Positions 1 through 10,842 of a stretch of DNA of 64,000 nt are shown in pieces. This DNA comes from a phage. The translations under genes and the position numbers were made by a program. The notes under the pieces were generated by a model. That model was not told the origin of the DNA. It saw only the letters and a program-made list of their open reading frames with translations, and did not search any database. The DNA is taken from sequence record PZ154895.1, one strand, 5' to 3'. The stretch's first letter is position 1, and each line of letters begins with the position of its first letter.

Positions 1-1
1 C

Positions 2-217
2 AATGCTCCTTTTACTTTCTATAAAGTTCTTACAAATAATGGTAAGATTGAGTATGATCGTCCACTAATTGTATCTCTTGCTAAACGAGCTGGATTCACA
101 TCTCTTAACATTCGTTATCCAGTCATTTTCATTAATGATTCTAGACAAAAGAACATTAAACACTTCAAAGAAACTCTCATTTCACTTGGATATGATAGAG
201 ATATCATAGAAGACTAA
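2..217 (+). CDS. 3' end of a glutaredoxin-like protein (NrdH-like), partial at window edge
   Basis: Frame open from window edge to TAA 215-217; tail ...RYPVIFINDSRQ...LISLGYD resembles glutaredoxin C-terminus; lies upstream of the gene 55 cluster. Confidence 0.4.
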   Translation, partial: NAPFTFYKVLTNNGKIEYDRPLIVSLAKRAGFTSLNIRYPVIFINDSRQKNIKHFKETLISLGYDRDIIED

Positions 218-218
218 G

Positions 219-241
219 ACGGGCCCTCTGGGCCTTTCTTT
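219..241 (+). terminator. GC hairpin (GGGCCC-tct-GGGCC) followed by T-rich run
   Basis: Inverted repeat directly after stop codon, then TTTCTTTCT. Confidence 0.45.
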
Positions 242-313
242 CTCACATTCTGTATATTACCATTCTAACTATCATTCACTTCTTATCATTCCCTAAAATA
301 ATTTCACAAAGTT

Positions 314-343
314 GTTTACAACAAGTTCAAACTGTGGTATTAT
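314..343 (+). promoter_or_regulatory. T4-type early promoter (GTTTACA, 17-18 nt spacer, TGnTATTAT)
   Basis: GTTTACA at 314-320, extended -10 TGGTATTAT at 335-343, about 30 nt before ATG 374. Confidence 0.6.
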
Positions 344-373
344 TAACATATGAATTGCCTTTGAGGATTTGAT

Positions 374-556
374 ATGGTTGTGGTTGATAAAGAAATTAAA
401 AAGGGACAATATTATTTTATTAATGGTAATGTTGTTCGTGTTACTTACGTAAACGGTTTTGAAGTTTATTATCTTATACTCAAGTTACATAAACAGATGA
501 TTTGTGATCGTGCTGTATTTAGTTCAGTTGCTAAGGAAATTAAACTCCATGGGTAA
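374..556 (+). CDS. hypothetical protein, 60 aa
   Basis: ORF directly downstream of early promoter; stop overlaps next start. Confidence 0.4.
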   Translation: MVVVDKEIKKGQYYFINGNVVRVTYVNGFEVYYLILKLHKQMICDRAVFSSVAKEIKLHG

Positions 557-842
557 AACGTATCGTCGTAAAGATTTAAAAGTACGTGATTATGACTATT
601 TTGGAAAGCGCAAAGCTCCTGATGGTGTAAGTCATAAAGATATGGTTGAAAACATTTTTCGCTCTGATAAATGGCGTAGAATGAAAGGCATTGATTCAGA
701 AGTTAAAGATGAGCTAAATCGTCAATTACGTAGTGAAGTAAGAAAGTTGAAAAAATCAGTTTACATTGACGATGATTTTGATTATAATACTTCTCAACGA
801 GTTGCTAAGCGTAAATCAAACGAGTGCTATCGTTACAGCTGA
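549..842 (+). CDS. hypothetical basic protein, 97 aa
   Basis: ATG 549 overlaps stop of upstream ORF; track ORF 504 trimmed to this ATG. Confidence 0.4.
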   Translation: MGKTYRRKDLKVRDYDYFGKRKAPDGVSHKDMVENIFRSDKWRRMKGIDSEVKDELNRQLRSEVRKLKKSVYIDDDFDYNTSQRVAKRKSNECYRYS

Positions 843-849
843 GGAAAAT

Positions 850-981
850 ATGAATATCAAACGAATGCTTTTTAAACAAGGATTATACACTTTAAATGTT
901 GCTCCAAAAGGTGATACGACTAAGTGGTCAATAAATGACTGGATTAAATTCATTGATGAAAACGGTAACTGGAAAATTTAA
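850..981 (+). CDS. hypothetical protein, 43 aa
   Basis: GAGGAAA RBS then ATG 850; track ORF 766 trimmed. Confidence 0.35.
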   Translation: MNIKRMLFKQGLYTLNVAPKGDTTKWSINDWIKFIDENGNWKI

Positions 982-1182
982 ATGAATCCTGAATCTAAAT
1001 TATCGCAACGAATTGCTGAAGCTCGTCGCCAGTTCTTTGAAAATATGATATCTCAAGGTATTGATGACGAAGTTTTTCTAAACTGGTTTTGGAATCACAA
1101 ATATTCAAGTTGCTCAGGAGCAATATTAATATCAGCCGCAATGATGTACGAAGGCTGGAAGGGTGCCAAGAAGTTTAGCTAA
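982..1182 (+). CDS. hypothetical protein, 66 aa
   Basis: TAAATG overlap with upstream ORF; followed by terminator. Confidence 0.4.
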   Translation: MNPESKLSQRIAEARRQFFENMISQGIDDEVFLNWFWNHKYSSCSGAILISAAMMYEGWKGAKKFS

Positions 1183-1200
1183 GGGCTTCGGCCCTTTTTG
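1181..1200 (+). terminator. intrinsic terminator AAGGGC-TTCG-GCCCTT plus T run
   Basis: 6-bp GC stem, UUCG tetraloop, TTTTT. Confidence 0.8.
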
Positions 1201-1234
1201 GATAATAAAATTTTAATGTAATTGAGGATAATGT

Positions 1235-1561
1235 ATGACTATTCAAATTAAAAACGCCATCAATTCTTACGCATATGATAAAGTAGTTTCTTTGCTAGAA
1301 AAAGGCGATATTGTAACTCCTCAAATTTTGGATAAATGGGAAAAAGAGCTTCATCAGACGATGAAACAGAATGATCAGAAAATTGGACGCAATACTGTCC
1401 GTGAATTGTTGGTTCAATATATCTTGTCAGAATTTGATGTTAAAGCTTTTGGTGTAGAATCTAAAGCTTATCAAAAACATGAAATTTCCGATAAAACTAT
1501 TCGTCGTATGAAAAATCAACGCAAGAAAAAATTTGCTGACCTGAAAATTGCTAAGGTATGA
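1235..1561 (+). CDS. hypothetical protein, 108 aa
   Basis: ORF with AGGA RBS; gene-55-proximal small-ORF cluster. Confidence 0.5.
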   Translation: MTIQIKNAINSYAYDKVVSLLEKGDIVTPQILDKWEKELHQTMKQNDQKIGRNTVRELLVQYILSEFDVKAFGVESKAYQKHEISDKTIRRMKNQRKKKFADLKIAKV

Positions 1562-1779
1562 ATATGAACGAAGCTCTTATTAACGATTTGCGTCTTGCCG
1601 GATATGAAGTAAATACAAATGGCATTGGTTTAACTCAAATTGAAGGAAATGGATTCATCCTTGAGTATGAATTTAGCCAATGGTGGTTATACGCTAATTA
1701 TGGCGAATTGATTGAATACGTTGACCAATTTGATTCACTAGATGCAGCTCTTGAAGCGGCTAAGTTGATGAATGTATGA
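1558..1779 (+). CDS. hypothetical protein, 73 aa
   Basis: Start overlaps upstream stop (ATGA). Confidence 0.45.
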   Translation: MNMNEALINDLRLAGYEVNTNGIGLTQIEGNGFILEYEFSQWWLYANYGELIEYVDQFDSLDAALEAAKLMNV

Positions 1780-2045
1780 AATTTATTAATATTTCTATTA
1801 CTATTGAAAATTATGGAATTTTCTATGTTGATCAATACATGAAAATTTCATTTTTCCCAAATAAGACTGGTGTTGGATATTGGGAAAGCCATGTTTCTGA
1901 ATTAAATGAAAGTGAATATGCTAGCACACATGAAAAGTTTTTAGACTTTTTATATCATGCTGATTTAACTAGTCATTATATAGATATTCATGAATTTAAA
2001 AAGATGATGGAGAAAGTGTTCCAAGCATACTGCTTACTTAGATAA
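1776..2045 (+). CDS. hypothetical protein, 89 aa
   Basis: Start overlaps upstream stop (ATGA). Confidence 0.45.
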   Translation: MKFINISITIENYGIFYVDQYMKISFFPNKTGVGYWESHVSELNESEYASTHEKFLDFLYHADLTSHYIDIHEFKKMMEKVFQAYCLLR

Positions 2046-2057
2046 CTGATATCCTCT

Positions 2058-2094
2058 ATGCTTTAAGATAGATCTTCAAATATTATGATATAAT
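2058..2094 (+). promoter_or_regulatory. candidate MotA-dependent middle promoter upstream of gene 55
   Basis: aTGCTTtA MotA-box-like at 2058-2065 and TATTAT/TATAAT about 17-25 nt downstream. Confidence 0.3.
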
Positions 2095-2123
2095 AGATCT
2101 ATGAATTGAGCTAAGAGGTGAAA

Positions 2124-2681
2124 ATGTCAGAAACTAAGCCTAAATATAATTACGTAAACAATAAAGAGCTTTTACAAGCTATTATTGATTGGAAAACAGA
2201 ATTAGCAAATAATAAAGACCCAAATAAAGTAGTTCGTCAGAATGATACTATCGGATTAGCCATTATGCTTATTGCAGAAGGTTTATCTAAACGTTTCAAC
2301 TTTTCAGGATACACCCAGTCTTGGAAACAAGAAATGATTGCAGATGGTATAGAAGCTTCTATTAAAGGACTTCATAATTTTGATGAAACGAAATATAAAA
2401 ACCCACATGCATATATAACTCAAGCTTGTTTTAATGCATTCGTCCAACGTATTAAAAAAGAACGTAAGGAAGTTGCAAAGAAATACAGTTACTTCGTTCA
2501 CAATGTCTATGACAGTCGTGACGACGATATGGTTGCGTTAGTAGATGAAACTTTTATTCAAGACATCTACGATAAAATGACGCATTACGAAGAATCAACC
2601 TATAGAACACCGGGGGCTGAAAAGAAAAGTGTTGTAGACGATTCTCCTAGTTTGGATTTTTTATATGAGGCTAACGATTAA
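2124..2681 (+). CDS. 55: gp55, sigma factor for late transcription
   Basis: 185 aa; [20 protein letters not shown]... matches T4 gp55 as recalled; AAGAGG RBS; track GTG start at 2118 trimmed to ATG. Confidence 0.93.
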
Positions 2682-3617: not shown

Positions 3618-4820
3618 ATGAAAGTATGCATTTTTATGGCTCGAGGTCTTGAAGGTTGTGGCGTAACTAAATTTTCTCTTGAGCAACGTGATTGGTTTAT
3701 TAAAAATGGTCATGAAGTAACTTTGGTTTATGCTAAAGATAAATCATTTACTCGTAATTGCGCACATGATTATAAGTCATTTTCAATTCCGGTTTTATTG
3801 GCAAAAGAATACGATAAAACACTTAAGTTGGTAAATGATTGTGATATTCTAATTATCAATTCAGTTCCTGCTACTTCAGTAGAAGAAGACACTATTAATA
3901 ACTATAAAAAAATTATTGATAACATTAAACCTTCAGTTCGTGTTGTAGTTTATCAGCATGACCATTCTTCTCTTTCTTTGCGCCGAAATTTGGGATTAGA
4001 AGAAACTGTTCGTCGAGCTGATGTTATTTTTAGTCATTCTGATAATGGTGATTTTAATAAAGTTCTGATGAAAGAATGGTATCCGGAAACTGTTTCTCTG
4101 TTTGATGATATTGAAGAAGCACCGACCGTATATAACTTTCAGCCTCCTATGGATATTGCGAAGGTTCGATCAACTTACTGGAAAGATGTTTCTGAAATTA
4201 ACATGAATATCAACCGTTGGATTGGTCGTACTACTACATGGAAAGGCTTTTATCAGATGTTTGATTTTCACGAAAAACATCTTAAACCTGCAGGACTAAG
4301 TACTATTATGGAAGGTCTGGAACGTTCTCCAGCGTTCATTCCTATTAAAGAAAAAGGAATTCCATACGAGTATTATCGTCTTCATCAAGTAGACCAAATT
4401 AAAATTGCTCCTAATTTGCCAACGCAAATTCTCGACCGTTATGTAAATAGCGAAATGCTTGAACGCATGAGTAAATCCGGATTTGGTTATCAGCTGAGTA
4501 AATTAGATAAAAAATATCTACAACGTTCTTTAGAATATACTCATCTCGAGCTTGGTGCATGCGGAACAATTCCAGTATTTTGGAAATCTACTGGCGAAAA
4601 TTTAAAATTCCGTGTTGATAATACTCCGTTAATTTCTCATGATAGCGGTATCGTTTGGTTTGATGAAAATGACATGGAATCAACATTTGAGCGTATTAAA
4701 GAACTGTCATCTGACCGAGCTCTTTATGACCGTGAACGCGAAAAAGCTTATGAATTTTTGTATCAGCATCAAGATTCAAGCTTCTGCTTTAAAGAACAGT
4801 TTGACATTATTACAAAATAA
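3618..4820 (+). CDS. a-gt: DNA alpha-glucosyltransferase
   Basis: 400 aa; near-identical along its length to T4 alpha-gt as recalled (ends ...SSFCFKEQFDIITK). Confidence 0.95.
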   Translation: MKVCIFMARGLEGCGVTKFSLEQRDWFIKNGHEVTLVYAKDKSFTRNCAHDYKSFSIPVLLAKEYDKTLKLVNDCDILIINSVPATSVEEDTINNYKKIIDNIKPSVRVVVYQHDHSSLSLRRNLGLEETVRRADVIFSHSDNGDFNKVLMKEWYPETVSLFDDIEEAPTVYNFQPPMDIAKVRSTYWKDVSEINMNINRWIGRTTTWKGFYQMFDFHEKHLKPAGLSTIMEGLERSPAFIPIKEKGIPYEYYRLHQVDQIKIAPNLPTQILDRYVNSEMLERMSKSGFGYQLSKLDKKYLQRSLEYTHLELGACGTIPVFWKSTGENLKFRVDNTPLISHDSGIVWFDENDMESTFERIKELSSDRALYDREREKAYEFLYQHQDSSFCFKEQFDIITK

Positions 4821-4838
4821 AGGGCTTCGGCCCTTTAG
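4821..4838 (+). terminator. intrinsic terminator AGGGC-TTCG-GCCCT
   Basis: Directly after a-gt stop. Confidence 0.75.
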
Positions 4839-4859
4839 CTTTATACGGAGTTTGATATA

Positions 4860-5000
4860 ATGATATTTCTTGGATATGTGATACTTTTTCTAGCGTTTTA
4901 TTTGTTCACCAGAGCATGTTGGATTGGGTTCTTTAGTACTCCAGATGGATTTATTTCAATAATTTTATTTTGCATTTCAATGACGGTTCTTGATATATGA
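4860..5000 (+). CDS. hypothetical small hydrophobic protein, 46 aa
   Basis: GGAG RBS, ATG 4860; single predicted TM helix; not in track. Confidence 0.3.
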   Translation: MIFLGYVILFLAFYLFTRACWIGFFSTPDGFISIILFCISMTVLDI

Positions 5001-5620
5001 AAAAATATATAACTTATTTAACAATATATAGTGGAGATAAACTTCCTCCTTTTTATATTGGATCTACATCTTTAGACAGGCATTTAGCCGGATATCATGG
5101 ATCAGTTTTATCTAAAAAGTATAAGAAAATTTATAATGAAGAACTTTCAAATAACCCACATTTATTTGATTCATGCATTTTAGATGAATTTGATACACGC
5201 GAAGAAGCTATTAAATGCGAGCTATATTATCAACGTTTGCATGATGCGGTTAAAAATCCATTATTCTTTAATATGTCATATGCTGCTCCAAAAGGTTCAT
5301 TTGGAAGAGATATTAAAGGACAAAATCATCCATTATATGGTTCTCATAATTGTAAAGGAAACATACATTCACATGACCCATTAACAGGAAAATCTGCCTT
5401 TTTACCGTATATTCCAGAAGGTTATGTAAAAGGAAGGTCAAATAAATTTAAAGCTTCATCACATAATAAAGGTAAAAAATGGTATAATAACGGAGTTAAG
5501 CAAATGTTATGTCATGAACCTCCTGGTCCTGAATGGACAAAAGGAAAAATTAAAGAACTAGTTTCAAAAGCAGCTAAATTAGGATGGAAAAGACACCATG
5601 AAAATACTAAACTTGGGTGA
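4997..5620 (+). CDS. Seg-like (degenerate GIY-YIG) freestanding endonuclease
   Basis: 207 aa; N-terminal ITYL...PPFYIGST...R..H block and E..YYQ..NP.FFN block; paralogous to ORF 61737-62369. Confidence 0.5.
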   Translation: MKKYITYLTIYSGDKLPPFYIGSTSLDRHLAGYHGSVLSKKYKKIYNEELSNNPHLFDSCILDEFDTREEAIKCELYYQRLHDAVKNPLFFNMSYAAPKGSFGRDIKGQNHPLYGSHNCKGNIHSHDPLTGKSAFLPYIPEGYVKGRSNKFKASSHNKGKKWYNNGVKQMLCHEPPGPEWTKGKIKELVSKAAKLGWKRHHENTKLG

Positions 5621-6877: not shown

Positions 6878-7064
6878 CATTAACGATGAATTCATAGCAA
6901 ATATTGATTACACCGAAGAAGATTCTAGATATGTTGGAATAATTTATATCACATCAAAAGCAGCACAAGGTGTTGTTTGCATGGCTGAATTTGATGAATA
7001 CTTTTTAGATTATGATGATATGATAGAATGGTCTAAAAGATACATTAAAAGGAATCTTTTGTGA
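6849..7064 (+). CDS. hypothetical protein, 71 aa
   Basis: Track ORF 6801 trimmed to ATG 6849; stop overlaps gene 46 start. Confidence 0.4.
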   Translation: MHTVKFSTFDINDEFIANIDYTEEDSRYVGIIYITSKAAQGVVCMAEFDEYFLDYDDMIEWSKRYIKRNLL

Positions 7065-8749
7065 AGAATTTTAAACTAAACCGAGTTAGGTATCAAAATA
7101 TAATGTCAGTAGGTGGAAATCCTATTGACATTCAACTAGATAAGGTTCAAAAAACTCTTATTACTGGGCGAAATGGTGGTGGTAAGTCTACTATGTTAGA
7201 AGCCATCACATTTGGGCTTTTTGGCAAGCCATTTCGTGATGTAAAGAAAGGTCAATTAATAAACAGCACAAATAAGAAAGAACTTTTAGTTGAACTGTGG
7301 ATGGAATATGATGAGAAAAAGTACTATATCAAAAGAGGACAAAAACCAAACGTTTTCGAAATCACCGTTAACGGTACACGTCTTAATGAATCTGCCAGCA
7401 GTAAAGATTTCCAAGCAGAATTTGAACAGCTTATCGGAATGTCATATGCCAGTTTCAAGCAGATTGTTGTCCTTGGTACAGCAGGGTATACCCCTTTCAT
7501 GGGTTTGTCGACCCCTGCGCGAAGAAAGCTTGTGGAAGACCTGCTCGAGGTAGGAACATTAGCTGAAATGGATAAGCTTAATAAAGCACTAATACGTGAA
7601 TTAAATTCACAAAACCAAGTGCTTGATGTTAAAAAAGATAGTATTATCCAACAAATTAAAATATATAATGATAACGTTGAACGCCAGAAAAAATTAACTG
7701 GTGATAACCTTACTCGTCTGCAGAACATGTATGATGATTTGGCAAAAGAAGCTAGAACGTTAAAATCGGAAATAGAAGAAGCTAATGAAAGATTAGTTAA
7801 TATTGTTTTGGATGAAGACCCGACTGATGCATTTAATAAAATCGGTCAAGAAGCATTTTTAATTAAATCAAAAATTGACTCGTATAATAAAGTCATTAAT
7901 ATGTATCACGAAGGTGGATTATGTCCAACCTGTTTGTCACAATTAAGTTCCGGTGATAAAGTTGTTTCTAAAATTAAAGATAAAGTTTCTGAATGCACGC
8001 ATTCATTTGAACAGCTTTCAACACATCGTGATAATTTAAAAGTTCTTGTTGATGAATACCGAGATAATATTAAAACCCAGCAGACGTTGGCAAATGATAT
8101 TCGCAATAAAAAGCAATCCTTAATCACGACGGTAGATAAAGCTAAAAAAGTTAAAGCGGCTATAGAAAAAGCATCATCTGAGTTTATTGACCATGCTGAT
8201 GAAATAGCACTGCTTCAAGAAGAACTTGATAAAATTGTTAAGACAAAAACTAATTTAGTAATGGAAAAATACCACAGAGGAATTTTGACTGATATGCTCA
8301 AAGATTCTGGTATTAAAGGTGCTATTATTAAAAAGTACATTCCATTATTTAATAAGCAGATTAACCATTATCTTAAAATAATGGAAGCGGATTATGTGTT
8401 TACATTAGATGAAGAATTTAATGAAACAATTAAATCCCGTGGTCGTGAAGATTTTAGTTATGCTTCATTTAGTCAAGGTGAAAAAGCACGAATTGATATT
8501 GCTCTTTTATTTACTTGGCGTGATATTGCTGAAAAAGTTTCAGGTGTTAAAATAAGCTGTTTATTTCTTGATGAAGTATATGACGGTGCATTTGATGCTG
8601 AAGGTATTAAAAATGTAGCTAAAATTTTAGATGGTTTGAAGGATACCAACTTCTTCATAATTTCGCATAAAGACCATGACCCACAAGAATATGGTCAGCA
8701 TATTCAGATGGAAAAAGTTGGTAGATTTAGTTTAGCTAAGATTAGCTAG
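7061..8749 (+). CDS. 46: gp46 recombination nuclease subunit (SbcC/Rad50-like ATPase)
   Basis: 562 aa, GTG start; Walker A GRNGGGKST, zinc hook CPTC, coiled coil, Walker B LFLDE. Confidence 0.93.
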   Translation: MKNFKLNRVRYQNIMSVGGNPIDIQLDKVQKTLITGRNGGGKSTMLEAITFGLFGKPFRDVKKGQLINSTNKKELLVELWMEYDEKKYYIKRGQKPNVFEITVNGTRLNESASSKDFQAEFEQLIGMSYASFKQIVVLGTAGYTPFMGLSTPARRKLVEDLLEVGTLAEMDKLNKALIRELNSQNQVLDVKKDSIIQQIKIYNDNVERQKKLTGDNLTRLQNMYDDLAKEARTLKSEIEEANERLVNIVLDEDPTDAFNKIGQEAFLIKSKIDSYNKVINMYHEGGLCPTCLSQLSSGDKVVSKIKDKVSECTHSFEQLSTHRDNLKVLVDEYRDNIKTQQTLANDIRNKKQSLITTVDKAKKVKAAIEKASSEFIDHADEIALLQEELDKIVKTKTNLVMEKYHRGILTDMLKDSGIKGAIIKKYIPLFNKQINHYLKIMEADYVFTLDEEFNETIKSRGREDFSYASFSQGEKARIDIALLFTWRDIAEKVSGVKISCLFLDEVYDGAFDAEGIKNVAKILDGLKDTNFFIISHKDHDPQEYGQHIQMEKVGRFSLAKIS

Positions 8750-9458
8750 GTTTATATTTACAGTTATCATTATGCCATCTTGATAAATTTCCGAAAGTGG
8801 TAACTTTACCACAATGGACGCAAGTACCAGTCTTTTCAGTTTTCTTGCGTCCATTTGGATTTTTCTTGCAGAAATTTCTATGCGCTGCGATAACGCATTT
8901 CTTGCCTATCATTCCACAGAATTCGCAGGATGTTTCTTCAAGAACGATTGCTTTAAGCCCGTTTGAGATATTATTTCTGTGTTCTTTAGACATTGGTGGT
9001 CTAACTTTAGGATTAGGGTGATTTGGACAGTTATCAAAATGCCAACGATTCATATTCCCGCTTAATCCAGACTTACCGCAATGAGGACAAGTTAGTCTTG
9101 CTTTATTAGCTACTGCATCAGACATTTTCTTTCGTGTCTCCTGGGAGAATTCTTTGTTCTTTTCTATTTCCCAGAGTTTACGACGAATCCAACCGAAAGT
9201 TTTATTGTTGCGTTTAGCGTATTTCGTGGAAACTGTCATCATGTTAGCAGCATAGACTAATTTTGGTTCAGAAGGATAAATTTTTACTAAAAGTTGATGA
9301 GCTACATAGTGCTCTTCTGGCGTTAAATCTACTAAGTTTGAAGCATCATCACTACCGTTTAAACAGCGTGGTATAATGTGATGAGATTCAGTATAGCAAT
9401 CAAGTTTTCGAGATTTAGCATTAGAGATTAACTTTTCATAAATTAGTTTATAATTCAT
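8742..9458 (-). CDS. HNH homing endonuclease with three C-terminal CxxC...W..DNC zinc-finger repeats
   Basis: 238 aa; HNH motif ESHHIIPRCLNGSDDASNLVDLTPEEHYVAH; opposite strand to flanking genes. Confidence 0.7.
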   Translation of the reverse strand: MNYKLIYEKLISNAKSRKLDCYTESHHIIPRCLNGSDDASNLVDLTPEEHYVAHQLLVKIYPSEPKLVYAANMMTVSTKYAKRNNKTFGWIRRKLWEIEKNKEFSQETRKKMSDAVANKARLTCPHCGKSGLSGNMNRWHFDNCPNHPNPKVRPPMSKEHRNNISNGLKAIVLEETSCEFCGMIGKKCVIAAHRNFCKKNPNGRKKTEKTGTCVHCGKVTTFGNLSRWHNDNCKYKPS

Positions 9459-9509
9459 AACATATCCTTTTGATACAGCGAGTGATAAACATATTTATAC
9501 GGAGGAACT

Positions 9510-9701
9510 GTGGCAGAATATTTAACTGGACAGCATCTATTAACTATTCCTGAAATAAAACGATATATTCTGAGAAATAATTTTTCTAATGAAGAGCATA
9601 TAGTTACTGAATCTATGCTTAAGAATGCATTTAAATCAGAATATACGAAAATAATGTCCAACAGGAATGAAGCTTGGACTGTTACTGATTATTATGACTA
9701 A
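9510..9701 (+). CDS. hypothetical protein, 63 aa
   Basis: ORF with GGAGGAA RBS. Confidence 0.45.
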   Translation: MAEYLTGQHLLTIPEIKRYILRNNFSNEEHIVTESMLKNAFKSEYTKIMSNRNEAWTVTDYYD

Positions 9702-9710
9702 AGGTGTATT

Positions 9711-10100
9711 ATGACTAAAATTACTGTGAATTATACTGTTGATGTAAAAGATATTCAGCCAAAACACGTGCGTTCTGAATCAAATCCGCAAAACCAAAAT
9801 AAAATTCGTCGAGCATGGGTTTTGTCTCTTTCTGATAACGCAATGGAAGTTATTCAGAATAAAATTAAATCTGCACCTGCTCGTCATGCGTATTATGAAG
9901 CTATCGATCGTGAAGTGAGTGATAAATGGATTGAACTAATGCGCAAACATACGACAGAATCTCTAAATGCTGGCGCTAAATTTATTATGACTTCATGCGG
10001 TGAACGCCTTGAAGATGATTATTGCGGTAATGCAGATGAACGTCTAATTGTTGCTGCTCAAATTGTTGCGGAAACAATTGCTGCTGATTTTAATCGTTAA
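9711..10100 (+). CDS. rpbA: RNA polymerase binding protein RpbA (by position and size)
   Basis: 129 aa ORF directly upstream of gene 45, as in T4. Confidence 0.6.
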
Positions 10101-10124
10101 TTGCTTTATTAAATTAGTTATAAA
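10101..10124 (+). promoter_or_regulatory. MotA-dependent middle promoter of gene 45
   Basis: MotA box tTGCTTtA at 10101-10108, -10 TATAAA at 10119-10124. Confidence 0.55.
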
Positions 10125-10155
10125 ATTAAATCTCATTTGAATTGAAGGAAATTAC

Positions 10156-10842
10156 ATGAAACTGTCTAAAGATACTACTGCTCTGCTTAAAAATTTCGCT
10201 ACTATTAACTCCGGTATTATGCTTAAATCCGGTCAATTTATTATGACTCGCGCAGTTAATGGTACAACTTATGCAGAAGCAAATATTTCTGACACTATTG
10301 ATTTTGATGTAGCAATTTACGATTTGAACGGTTTTCTCGGTATTCTGTCTCTAGTTAATGACGATGCAGAAATTTCCCAGTCAGAAGATGGAAATATTAA
10401 AATTGCTGATGCCCGTTCAACAATTTTTTGGCCAGCAGCCGATCCGAGTACAGTAGTTGCTCCTAATAAACCAATTCCATTCCCGGTAGCATCTGTTGTT
10501 ACTGAAATTAAAGCTGAAGACCTTCAACAACTGTTGCGTGTATCTCGCGGTCTGCAGATTGATACAATTGCTATCACAGTAAAAGAAGGTAAAATCGTAA
10601 TTAACGGTTTTAATAAAGTAGAAGATTCTGCTTTGACCCGTGTTAAATATTCTTTGACTCTTGGTGATTATGATGGTGAAAATACATTTAATTTCATTAT
10701 CAATATGGCAAATATGAAAATGCAACCAGGAAATTATAAACTTCTGCTCTGGGCAAAAGGTAAACAAGGCGCTGCTAAATTTGAAGGTGAACATGCGAAT
10801 TATGTAGTAGCTCTTGAAGCTGATTCTACCCACGATTTTTAA
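10156..10842 (+). CDS. 45: gp45 sliding clamp
   Basis: 228 aa; MKLSKDTTALLKNFATINSGIMLKSGQF... matches T4 gp45. Confidence 0.95.
   Translation: MKLSKDTTALLKNFATINSGIMLKSGQFIMTRAVNGTTYAEANISDTIDFDVAIYDLNGFLGILSLVNDDAEISQSEDGNIKIADARSTIFWPAADPSTVVAPNKPIPFPVASVVTEIKAEDLQQLLRVSRGLQIDTIAITVKEGKIVINGFNKVEDSALTRVKYSLTLGDYDGENTFNFIINMANMKMQPGNYKLLLWAKGKQGAAKFEGEHANYVVALEADSTHDF

Follow-up and report, generated by a model that had tools for sequence, protein, structure and literature searches.

Our analysis indicates that a minus-strand gene lying between genes 46 and 45.2 of a T4-like phage (positions 8742..9458 of a stretch of 64,000 nucleotides (nt) from sequence record PZ154895.1, referred to here as the window) probably belongs to the free-standing homing endonuclease genes and is still active, or was so until recently; its product would nick or cut recipient DNA, most likely in the 3' end of gene 46. 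The phage is a Tequatrovirus (T4-like coliphage), the best match to a 2.2-kb query covering 8000-10200 being phage JE01 (99.0%). Judged by its sequence, the endonuclease gene is an ordinary representative of the phage-borne HNH homing endonucleases of the Mob/I-TevIII class. It is also already catalogued, as public genomes annotate it as a homing endonuclease; what we add to the existing annotation is the homology of its C-terminal fingers to those of I-TevIII, a conserved antisense late promoter predicted from its motif, and a testable prediction of the target region.

The features on which the reading of this region depends are:

8742..9458, minus strand: free-standing homing endonuclease gene, orthologue of RB32ORF054w (open reading frame listing, PHROG 655, identity to the RB32 gene, purifying selection)

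8730..9516, no strand assigned: inserted cassette of 786 nt, replacing a 72-nt empty site (BLAST breakpoints, junction alignments)

7061..8749, plus strand: gene 46 (SbcC-like recombination nuclease subunit), putative target gene, 562 amino acids versus 560 in T4

8530..8729, plus strand: divergent tract at the gene 46 3' end, proposed co-conversion tract, linked to the endonuclease gene

9510..9701, plus strand: gene 45.2, right-hand neighbour of the cassette, 63 amino acids, GTG start versus ATG in T4 (PHROG 1045 at 1.9e-32)

An intact, patchily distributed antisense gene

The preliminary description of this DNA had reported an antisense open reading frame (ORF) overlapping the gene 46 stop by 8 nt, and both points agree with the ORF listing: the frame at 8742..9458 is intact, begins with ATG, encodes 238 amino acids and shares positions 8742-8749 with gene 46, the two 3' ends being convergent. 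The neighbours had been given as gene 46 and rpbA, which is correct for gene 46; on the right, the small gene 45.2 intervenes and rpbA starts at 9711. It had further been called the only antisense gene of the early region and, as far as tested (minus-strand ORFs of at least 110 amino acids, 1-49 kb), it is, all the others being nested within larger plus-strand genes. Two of these nested ORFs were scanned against PHROG and had no match there.

The 238-amino-acid protein matches PHROG 655 ('homing endonuclease') at 8.6e-69 and has more than 2300 homologues in a large protein collection. All six copies examined are full length and free of stops, and the codons that vary among six phages divide into 32 that are synonymous only and four that change an amino acid; the gene is under purifying selection. 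Together, the PHROG match, the number of homologues and this codon pattern show that the ORF is not a chance reading frame. A tblastn search found no paralogue of the protein elsewhere in the window.

The gene stands free between the conserved genes 46 and 45.2 and is variably present among close relatives. Presence of the same ORF in T4 and every close relative would have refuted a lineage-specific insertion. T4, in line with the preliminary description, has no endonuclease here (its order is 46 - 45.2 - rpbA - 45, with nothing between), and the gene is also missing from T2, RB18 and most other relatives, including fPS-90, FL33, CrRp10, slur03 and a15. Nine loci were found in IMG/VR via RpbA; the six that are Tequatrovirus-like all lack the gene and were used as extra empty-site examples, and the other three were not usefully tested. 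The insert is present in 60 of the 668 records matching the region, and a search with the gene alone returned 59 records at 95% identity or more. Carriers thus make up about 11% of some 530 Tequatrovirus records, with copies that are 95-100% identical and occur in several ICTV species and backgrounds (JE01, G28, PhiZZ30, fFiEco06, Ozark, teqhad, slur07 and Aplg8 among them). RB32, reportedly sequenced in 2006, has a copy 98.5% identical to ours, RB32ORF054w (YP_802996.1), annotated 'homing endonuclease, similar to mobB'. Two mob-like HNH genes are carried by that phage (Petrov et al. 2010, PMC2993671). The gene was also found at 97.3%, adjoining T4-like sequence, in the 142-kb record PV654520.1, 'Pseudomonas phage vB_PSGBLB0006', labelled as a P. 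aeruginosa phage; the host label or the assembly of this record looks doubtful.

Diverged copies of the same family lie at the same junction, also antisense, in Dhakavirus Bp7, Mosigvirus FL31 and the Klebsiella phages Phi_KR8 and Roth19, and overlap the gene 46 stop wherever the record permits judgement. Pairwise amino acid identity among the window, Dhakavirus, Mosigvirus and Klebsiella-phage endonucleases is 56-68%. The earlier proposal of a lineage-specific mobile insertion is supported with one qualification: a discrete 786-nt cassette in unrelated backgrounds fits a mobile insertion, but a family occupying the same site in four genera is not lineage-specific.

A discrete cassette linked to a divergent tract of gene 46

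Alignment of the 46-rpbA interval to relatives, which had been proposed as a check, gave discrete boundaries: 786 nt at 8730..9516 stand in place of 72 nt, and the BLAST breakpoints are identical against 13 loci without the endonuclease gene. The 72-nt empty site contains the last gene 46 codons and the 45.2 start codon, ATG, as well as a middle promoter of MotA type (ATGCTTTA-N12-TATAAT), which the fPS-90 record annotates as such. The cassette provides a new end for gp46 (...RFSLAKIS, 562 amino acids, versus ...RFTVMV, 560 amino acids) and a new GTG start for 45.2.

Comparison of the flanks of six carrier loci with those of the 13 loci without the gene revealed a marked asymmetry. On the left, about 190 nt of gene 46 (8530-8729) hold 20 fixed differences, with 17-28% divergence between carriers and non-carriers as against at most 2% among carriers; on the right, there is no fixed difference between the two groups and no linked tract. 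In a nearest-neighbour test the proximal 200 nt of gene 46 clustered strictly by carrier status, and in distal gene 46 (7070-8500) and the right flank (9517-10800) the nearest neighbour of all six carriers was a phage without the gene. These alignments indicate that the cassette and its one-sided 190-nt tract travel as a unit through different backgrounds. The Mosigvirus carrier FL31 repeats the Tequatrovirus pattern independently: through the first 1500 nt of gene 46 it hardly differs from three relatives that are non-carriers, and the last 190 nt then show 22, 21 and 7 differences per 60 nt. The identities of the endonucleases and of gp46 are also incongruent (57.8% for the endonuclease and 82.6% for gp46 between the window and FL31). 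Recent import of the tract from the sampled Klebsiella-phage or Mosigvirus lineages was ruled out, as these are only 62-80% identical to it.

Within the tract, two codons are kept by all non-carriers across genera and differ in all carriers, those for Phe in LILDEVFD (8579-8581) and for Asn in K-N-T-N (8641-8642). We take LILDEVFD of gp46 to be the Walker B motif of ABC-type ATPases. Repair of a double-strand break necessarily co-converts whatever lies between the cut and the gene for the endonuclease; since the linked tract is one-sided, the cut would then fall about 160-200 bp inside gene 46, near the LILDEVFD segment. The tract thus suggests that the cleavage (or immunity) site lies in the gene 46 3' end.

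Bp7 gene 46 was left out of the flank analysis because of frameshifts in the record. This gene (803..2303 of the Bp7 locus) is annotated in two pieces, with frameshifts and stops exactly in the region equivalent to LILDEVFD; these are either errors of sequencing or genuine lesions in the proposed target region.

It is possible, though not likely, that the enzyme recognises the 72-nt empty junction rather than gene 46. The cassette deletes this segment, so carriers would be immune with the site gone, as for intron-encoded enzymes, and the gene 46 tract would be hitch-hiking donor DNA. The 72 nt are essentially identical in all 13 Tequatrovirus loci without the gene, whichever of two gene 46 haplotypes (described below) they have, and as a target would thus be better conserved than the end of gene 46, which is polymorphic. 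Moreover, the cut made by I-TevIII, an enzyme with the same finger domain, is 14-16 bp away from that enzyme's insertion site (PMC1865063). At the same time, a cut at the junction would not force a one-sided tract of about 190 nt to stay linked in two separate genera, and the empty-site spacer of Mosigvirus differs substantially from that of Tequatrovirus. Where free-standing T4 enzymes have been characterised, they act within the adjacent gene: MobE nicks 122-126 nt into nrdB (Wilson & Edgell 2009, PMC2790892), and SegG has been described as acting from a distant cleavage site.

Expression signals

Three putative signals were located in the cassette:

9492..9499, minus strand: T4-type late promoter TATAAATA, perfect match, 33 nt upstream of the endonuclease ATG

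9465-9469, minus strand: Shine-Dalgarno sequence AAGGA, 6 nt before the endonuclease ATG

8949..8974, plus strand: MotA-box-like middle-promoter match TGCTTTA-N13-TATTAT (regular expression search), on the opposite strand inside the endonuclease gene

The endonuclease gene has its own conserved motif for a predicted late promoter. TATAAATA is kept upstream of the orthologues in KR8, Roth19, Bp7 and FL31, which belong to three other genera, and of its four minus-strand matches in the window the remaining three precede tail-fibre late genes. Counted over the whole window, the motif is not more frequent than expected by chance, so the case for a late promoter rests on position and conservation. 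Sigma-70 promoter-like sites were below expectation. No intrinsic terminator was predicted between the endonuclease gene and gene 46, and late transcripts therefore probably run antisense into gene 46.

The 5' untranslated region (UTR) after the late promoter (9459..9491, minus strand; GTTTATCAnTCGCTGTATCA) is conserved across genera whose proteins are only about 60% identical, and may be an operator or an opposite-strand signal for 45.2. RNAalifold found no conserved fold in this region (0 pairs; single-sequence z-score -0.4). On the same grounds, we rejected a hairpin that would hide the ribosome-binding site in the way known from mobE and I-TevI. An I-TevI-style operator resembling the target (the empty-site DNA) was likewise rejected, as the best candidate had 15/20 matches, a score equalled by 63 of 200 shuffles and thus not significant.

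In all six Tequatrovirus carriers the match at 8949 retains its MotA box and -10 element, G28 having single substitutions in the flank or spacer; at the equivalent position in other genera the match is missing. There are 26 plus-strand MotA-like matches in the 64 kb. The one at 8949 might be a replacement for the middle promoter lost with the empty site, or may have arisen by chance.

Part of this evidence would also fit a gene that is mainly vertically inherited, resident or domesticated, and no longer homing, acting perhaps as a late weapon or exclusion nuclease against competitors, as a regulator binding to DNA or, like I-TevI (PMC2988022), as an autorepressor, or as a source of late antisense RNA against gene 46, with a patchy distribution due to losses and recombination. 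We consider this unlikely. Four genera do share site, orientation and promoter; the endonucleases (56-68% identity) have diverged about as much as the core genes on either side (gp46 60-83%, gp45 60-78%), which would suit a long-standing resident; selection is strongly purifying; the 5' UTR is likewise kept from genus to genus; and, with no terminator predicted, late transcripts would enter gene 46 antisense. Yet only about 11% of Tequatrovirus records carry the gene, the near-identical copies sit in several species and on mosaic backgrounds, the endonuclease and gp46 identities are incongruent and all catalytic residues are intact, while the conserved UTR shows neither significant similarity to empty-site DNA nor a conserved RNA fold.

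A Mob-type nuclease domain

The N-terminal part of the protein comprises:

9159..9458, minus strand: Mob-type HNH nuclease domain, residues 1 to about 100 (similarity to MobB-E, invariant residues, AlphaFold (AF2) model)

9297-9389, minus strand: catalytic core, residues 24-54, with H26, H27, N41, H50 and H54

The HNH block quoted in the preliminary description, ESHHIIPRCLNGSDDASNLVDLTPEEHYVAH, was located at residues 24-54. Loss of the catalytic His and Asn residues on alignment had been named there as evidence that would speak against an endonuclease; His26, His27, Asn41, His50 and His54 are invariant in 70 aligned family members, and the catalytic and zinc ligands are kept down to 42% identity. 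An AF2 model built on the 70-sequence alignment (mean pLDDT 93.8) has strands at 24-27 and 42-45 followed by a helix at 47-60, which corresponds to the beta-beta-alpha nuclease core, and the general-base His, structural Asn and metal-binding His/Asn of the HNH / His-Me finger fold are all accounted for. Sequence searches for relatives of solved structure gave marginal matches only (E >0.1), and fold searches with the whole model returned weak, thematic matches only, to C2H2 arrays and HNH domains.

The N-terminal 110 residues or so are 44% identical to T4 MobB, 42.5% to MobE, 53% to MobD (over 70 residues) and 37% to MobC, with BLASTP E values of 2e-29, 1e-28, 3e-23 and 4e-22, respectively, the matches being confined to residues 1 to about 134. 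The Mob class is defined by a conserved N-terminal HNH domain combined with a protein-specific C-terminal domain (PMC2790892), and this is the arrangement that we find.

A tail of three predicted zinc fingers

The nuclease core is followed by three fingers:

9027..9089, minus strand: zinc finger 1, residues 124-144, CPHCGKSGLSGNMNRWHFDNC, ligands C124, C127, H140 and C144

8868..8927, minus strand: zinc finger 2, residues 178-197, CEFCGMIGKKCVIAAHRNFC, ligands C178, C181, H193 and C197, CX2CX11HX3C (regular expression search)

8760..8822, minus strand: zinc finger 3, residues 213-233, CVHCGKVTTFGNLSRWHNDNC, ligands C213, C216, H229 and C233

In the AF2 model each finger is a hairpin plus a helix. 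Three CxxC...H...C modules had indeed been described before, with RWHxDNC in each; that motif is present in fingers 1 and 3 only, finger 2 reading AAHRNFC. The ligands of finger 1 are invariant in 16 close full-length homologues and those of finger 3 in all 70 aligned family members; finger 2 is kept in the 12 closest aligned homologues and is lost or degenerate in more distant members. A NUMOD3-like helix (residues 103-117; 106-117 in the model) precedes finger 1, and a helix in a NUMOD3-like position (158-170) precedes finger 2. NUMOD3 (PF07460) scores a weak 12.6 bits on the protein at residues 103-115, under its cut-off of 20.4, and is matched by 46 of the 70 family members (best 1.7e-29). 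No finger family in Pfam or NCBIfam scored over threshold, and no curated family covers the finger.

Finger 2 aligns with the first finger of I-TevIII and finger 3 with the second (BLASTP, 37-38% identity; E 1e-7 for the T4 C-terminal remnant and 7e-8 for the full-length RB7 protein), the similarity being limited to the two fingers. Fingers 2 and 3 would thus form a predicted C-terminal DNA-binding domain of tandem CX2CX12-13HX3C type. From its sequence, the protein reads as a chimera of modules, a Mob-type nuclease joined to three I-TevIII-type fingers.

The helix and finger 1 are 44% identical to T4 NrdB.1. T4 nrdB.1 (9717..9968 of the T4 locus compared) lies just 3' of the short ORF of mobE and codes for a helix resembling NUMOD3 and for one CCHC finger, which is 44-58% identical to fingers 1 and 3 of our protein. 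This points to a longer Mob protein that was later split into mobE and nrdB.1.

Proposed mechanism and its standing

If the gene homes as we propose, it would be transcribed late in infection by gp55-RNA polymerase, antisense to the early genes. In a co-infection with a phage that lacks it, the finger array would bind recipient DNA near the 46/45.2 junction, and the tethered HNH domain would nick it in the manner of MobE or, as a dimer, cut both strands in the manner of I-TevIII; the final ~200 bp of gene 46 are the most likely place. Repair by recombination would then copy the cassette from the carrier genome and co-convert the stretch between cut and cassette, which may produce localized marker exclusion around genes 46/45. 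The carrier genome would be protected by its own, differing gene 46 3' end.

Several points weigh against this interpretation. Non-carriers hold two very different gene 46 3' haplotypes, a T4 type and a T2 type, so this region also varies among phages without the gene. The tract could be DNA from a divergent donor that arrived with the cassette and is uninformative on the cut site, or the high recombination of T4-like phages could have given the mosaic pattern without homing. The literature searched held no experimental study of the endonuclease gene, RB32ORF054w or its copies. Finally, the Pfam HNH profile PF01844 scores below its gathering threshold (16.9 versus 21.4 bits, E 0.0072); the profile matches 38 of the 70 proteins of the family with E values no higher than 0.01 (2e-5 at best), and the low score reflects a divergent subfamily rather than loss of the motif.

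The two haplotypes, represented by five loci of T4 type and eight of T2 type, diverge by 21-30% in the final ~250 nt of gene 46, including amino acid changes after LILDEVFD, and are 92-100% identical in the remainder of the gene (97-100% over most of its length). They may be footprints of earlier invasions and losses, or reflect selection for cleavage resistance.

We also considered a bolder proposal, in which the family is a conserved late antisense module that attacks the Walker-B segment of competitors' gene 46, reading glucosylated hydroxymethylcytosine DNA via its three CCHC fingers, with the cassette keeping its place through a replacement middle promoter for 45.2-rpbA-45 (the match at 8949) and late read-through silencing gene 46. 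If true, the protein would be a natural phage zinc-finger nuclease as well as a regulator of its host operon, but we regard this combination as quite improbable. One could also see in the ORF an inactive or decaying relic, as I-TevIII and mobA are in T4, or an antisense frame arisen by chance, and cite for this the sub-threshold Pfam score, the departure of finger 2 from the motif of fingers 1 and 3 and the commonness of inactive relics in T4 (PMC2988022); both are hard to believe given a gene that is full length in six copies, 32 versus four variable codons, conserved catalytic and zinc ligands and a confident model.

Other insertions in the 47-46-45 region

A second, unrelated HNH gene is found at 4997..5620 (plus strand; 207 amino acids; PHROG 10820 at 2.3e-93), between a-gt and gene 47 and overlapping the gene 47 start; T4 has only the 46-amino-acid 47.1 at this position. 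Two different free-standing endonuclease genes therefore flank the 47-46 nuclease operon of this phage. In T2 (locus 1..308) and G28 (locus 1..546) a further annotated 'homing endonuclease' lies upstream of gene 46, in the 46.1/46.2 region, abutting gene 46 in G28 and separated from it by one small ORF in T2. The 47-46-45 region thus appears to be a hotspot of endonuclease insertions. Extra ORFs occur between rpbA and gene 45 in Mosigvirus FL31 (3660..4550) and FL18 (3998..4889), and between genes 45 and 44 in Bp7 (4641..5219), none of them being present in T4; these may be further mobile insertions.

Significance

In some T-even phages, a selfish endonuclease cassette sits in the replication-recombination region around genes 46 and 45. 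Its biological stakes are modest, but its presence bears on how mosaicism and marker exclusion are read in crosses and in T4-like phage-therapy cocktails. The occurrence of an I-TevIII finger domain on a Mob-type enzyme illustrates module shuffling and gives the 238-amino-acid protein a mechanistic anchor. Finding a one-sided tract in two genera narrows the search for the cut site to 8530-8729, that is, to the part coding for LILDEVFD and the residues after it.

Comparison with known systems

RB32ORF054w and the roughly 60 Tequatrovirus copies are the same gene at the same site, antisense between 46 and 45.2, with 98.5-100% nucleotide identity, and we see no substantive difference between them and the gene in the window.

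Among T4 proteins, MobB-E, of which MobE is the one characterised, are closest in the N-terminal HNH domain, from MNY..IY..L through HHIIPR....D..NLV.LT..EH (37-53% identity), and their genes are likewise free-standing, intergenic, sporadic and placed beside a conserved DNA-metabolism gene. As annotated, however, MobB-E have no CX2C..HX3C finger, and the T4 mob genes are co-oriented with their neighbours, many having no promoter of their own (PMC2988022), unlike the antisense gene described here with its predicted late promoter. Our model of a target in gene 46 parallels MobE in that the cut would lie inside the neighbouring gene and carrier polymorphisms would be protective, the host of MobE being known to carry protective polymorphisms (PMC2790892).

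I-TevIII (RB3/RB7) shares the overall plan of an N-terminal HNH domain and C-terminal tandem fingers. Its CX2CX12-13HX3C fingers are zinc-binding, and both DNA binding and cleavage depend on them (Robbins et al. 2007, PMC1865063); I-TevIII acts as a dimer, producing a double-strand break with 2-nt 3' overhangs. The catalytic residues that were mutated, H26/H27/N39/H48 (PMC1865063), correspond to H26/H27/N41/H50 of our protein. At the same time, the N-terminal 120 residues give no BLASTP alignment between the HNH domains of I-TevIII (RB7) and our protein, which has three fingers in 238 residues as against two in 269. Moreover, I-TevIII is encoded inside the nrdB group I intron, and the gene described here stands free between 46 and 45.2.

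Classical C2H2 fingers such as those of CTCF and Tramtrack resemble the tail in their C-X2-C-X12-H-X3-(C/H) spacing and their hairpin and helix, which in the tail are predicted. C2H2 arrays are the top Foldseek matches, although not significant ones (E >=0.02, TM <=0.2), and the tail differs from them in having Cys as the last ligand and long linkers (13 and 33 residues) that contain helices. The model thus points to a structural resemblance only.

In its orientation, the gene compares with segD, the sole T4 homing endonuclease gene oriented against its neighbours (Edgell review, PMC2988022). For segD, which encodes a GIY-YIG enzyme, no promoter can be identified and expression is believed to be very low, whereas our gene encodes an HNH enzyme and has a conserved putative late promoter. 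An antisense endonuclease gene with its own promoter is somewhat unusual, because all T4 endonuclease genes other than the promoter-less segD are co-oriented with their neighbours, and the gene at the 46/45.2 junction provides a clean example of this arrangement.

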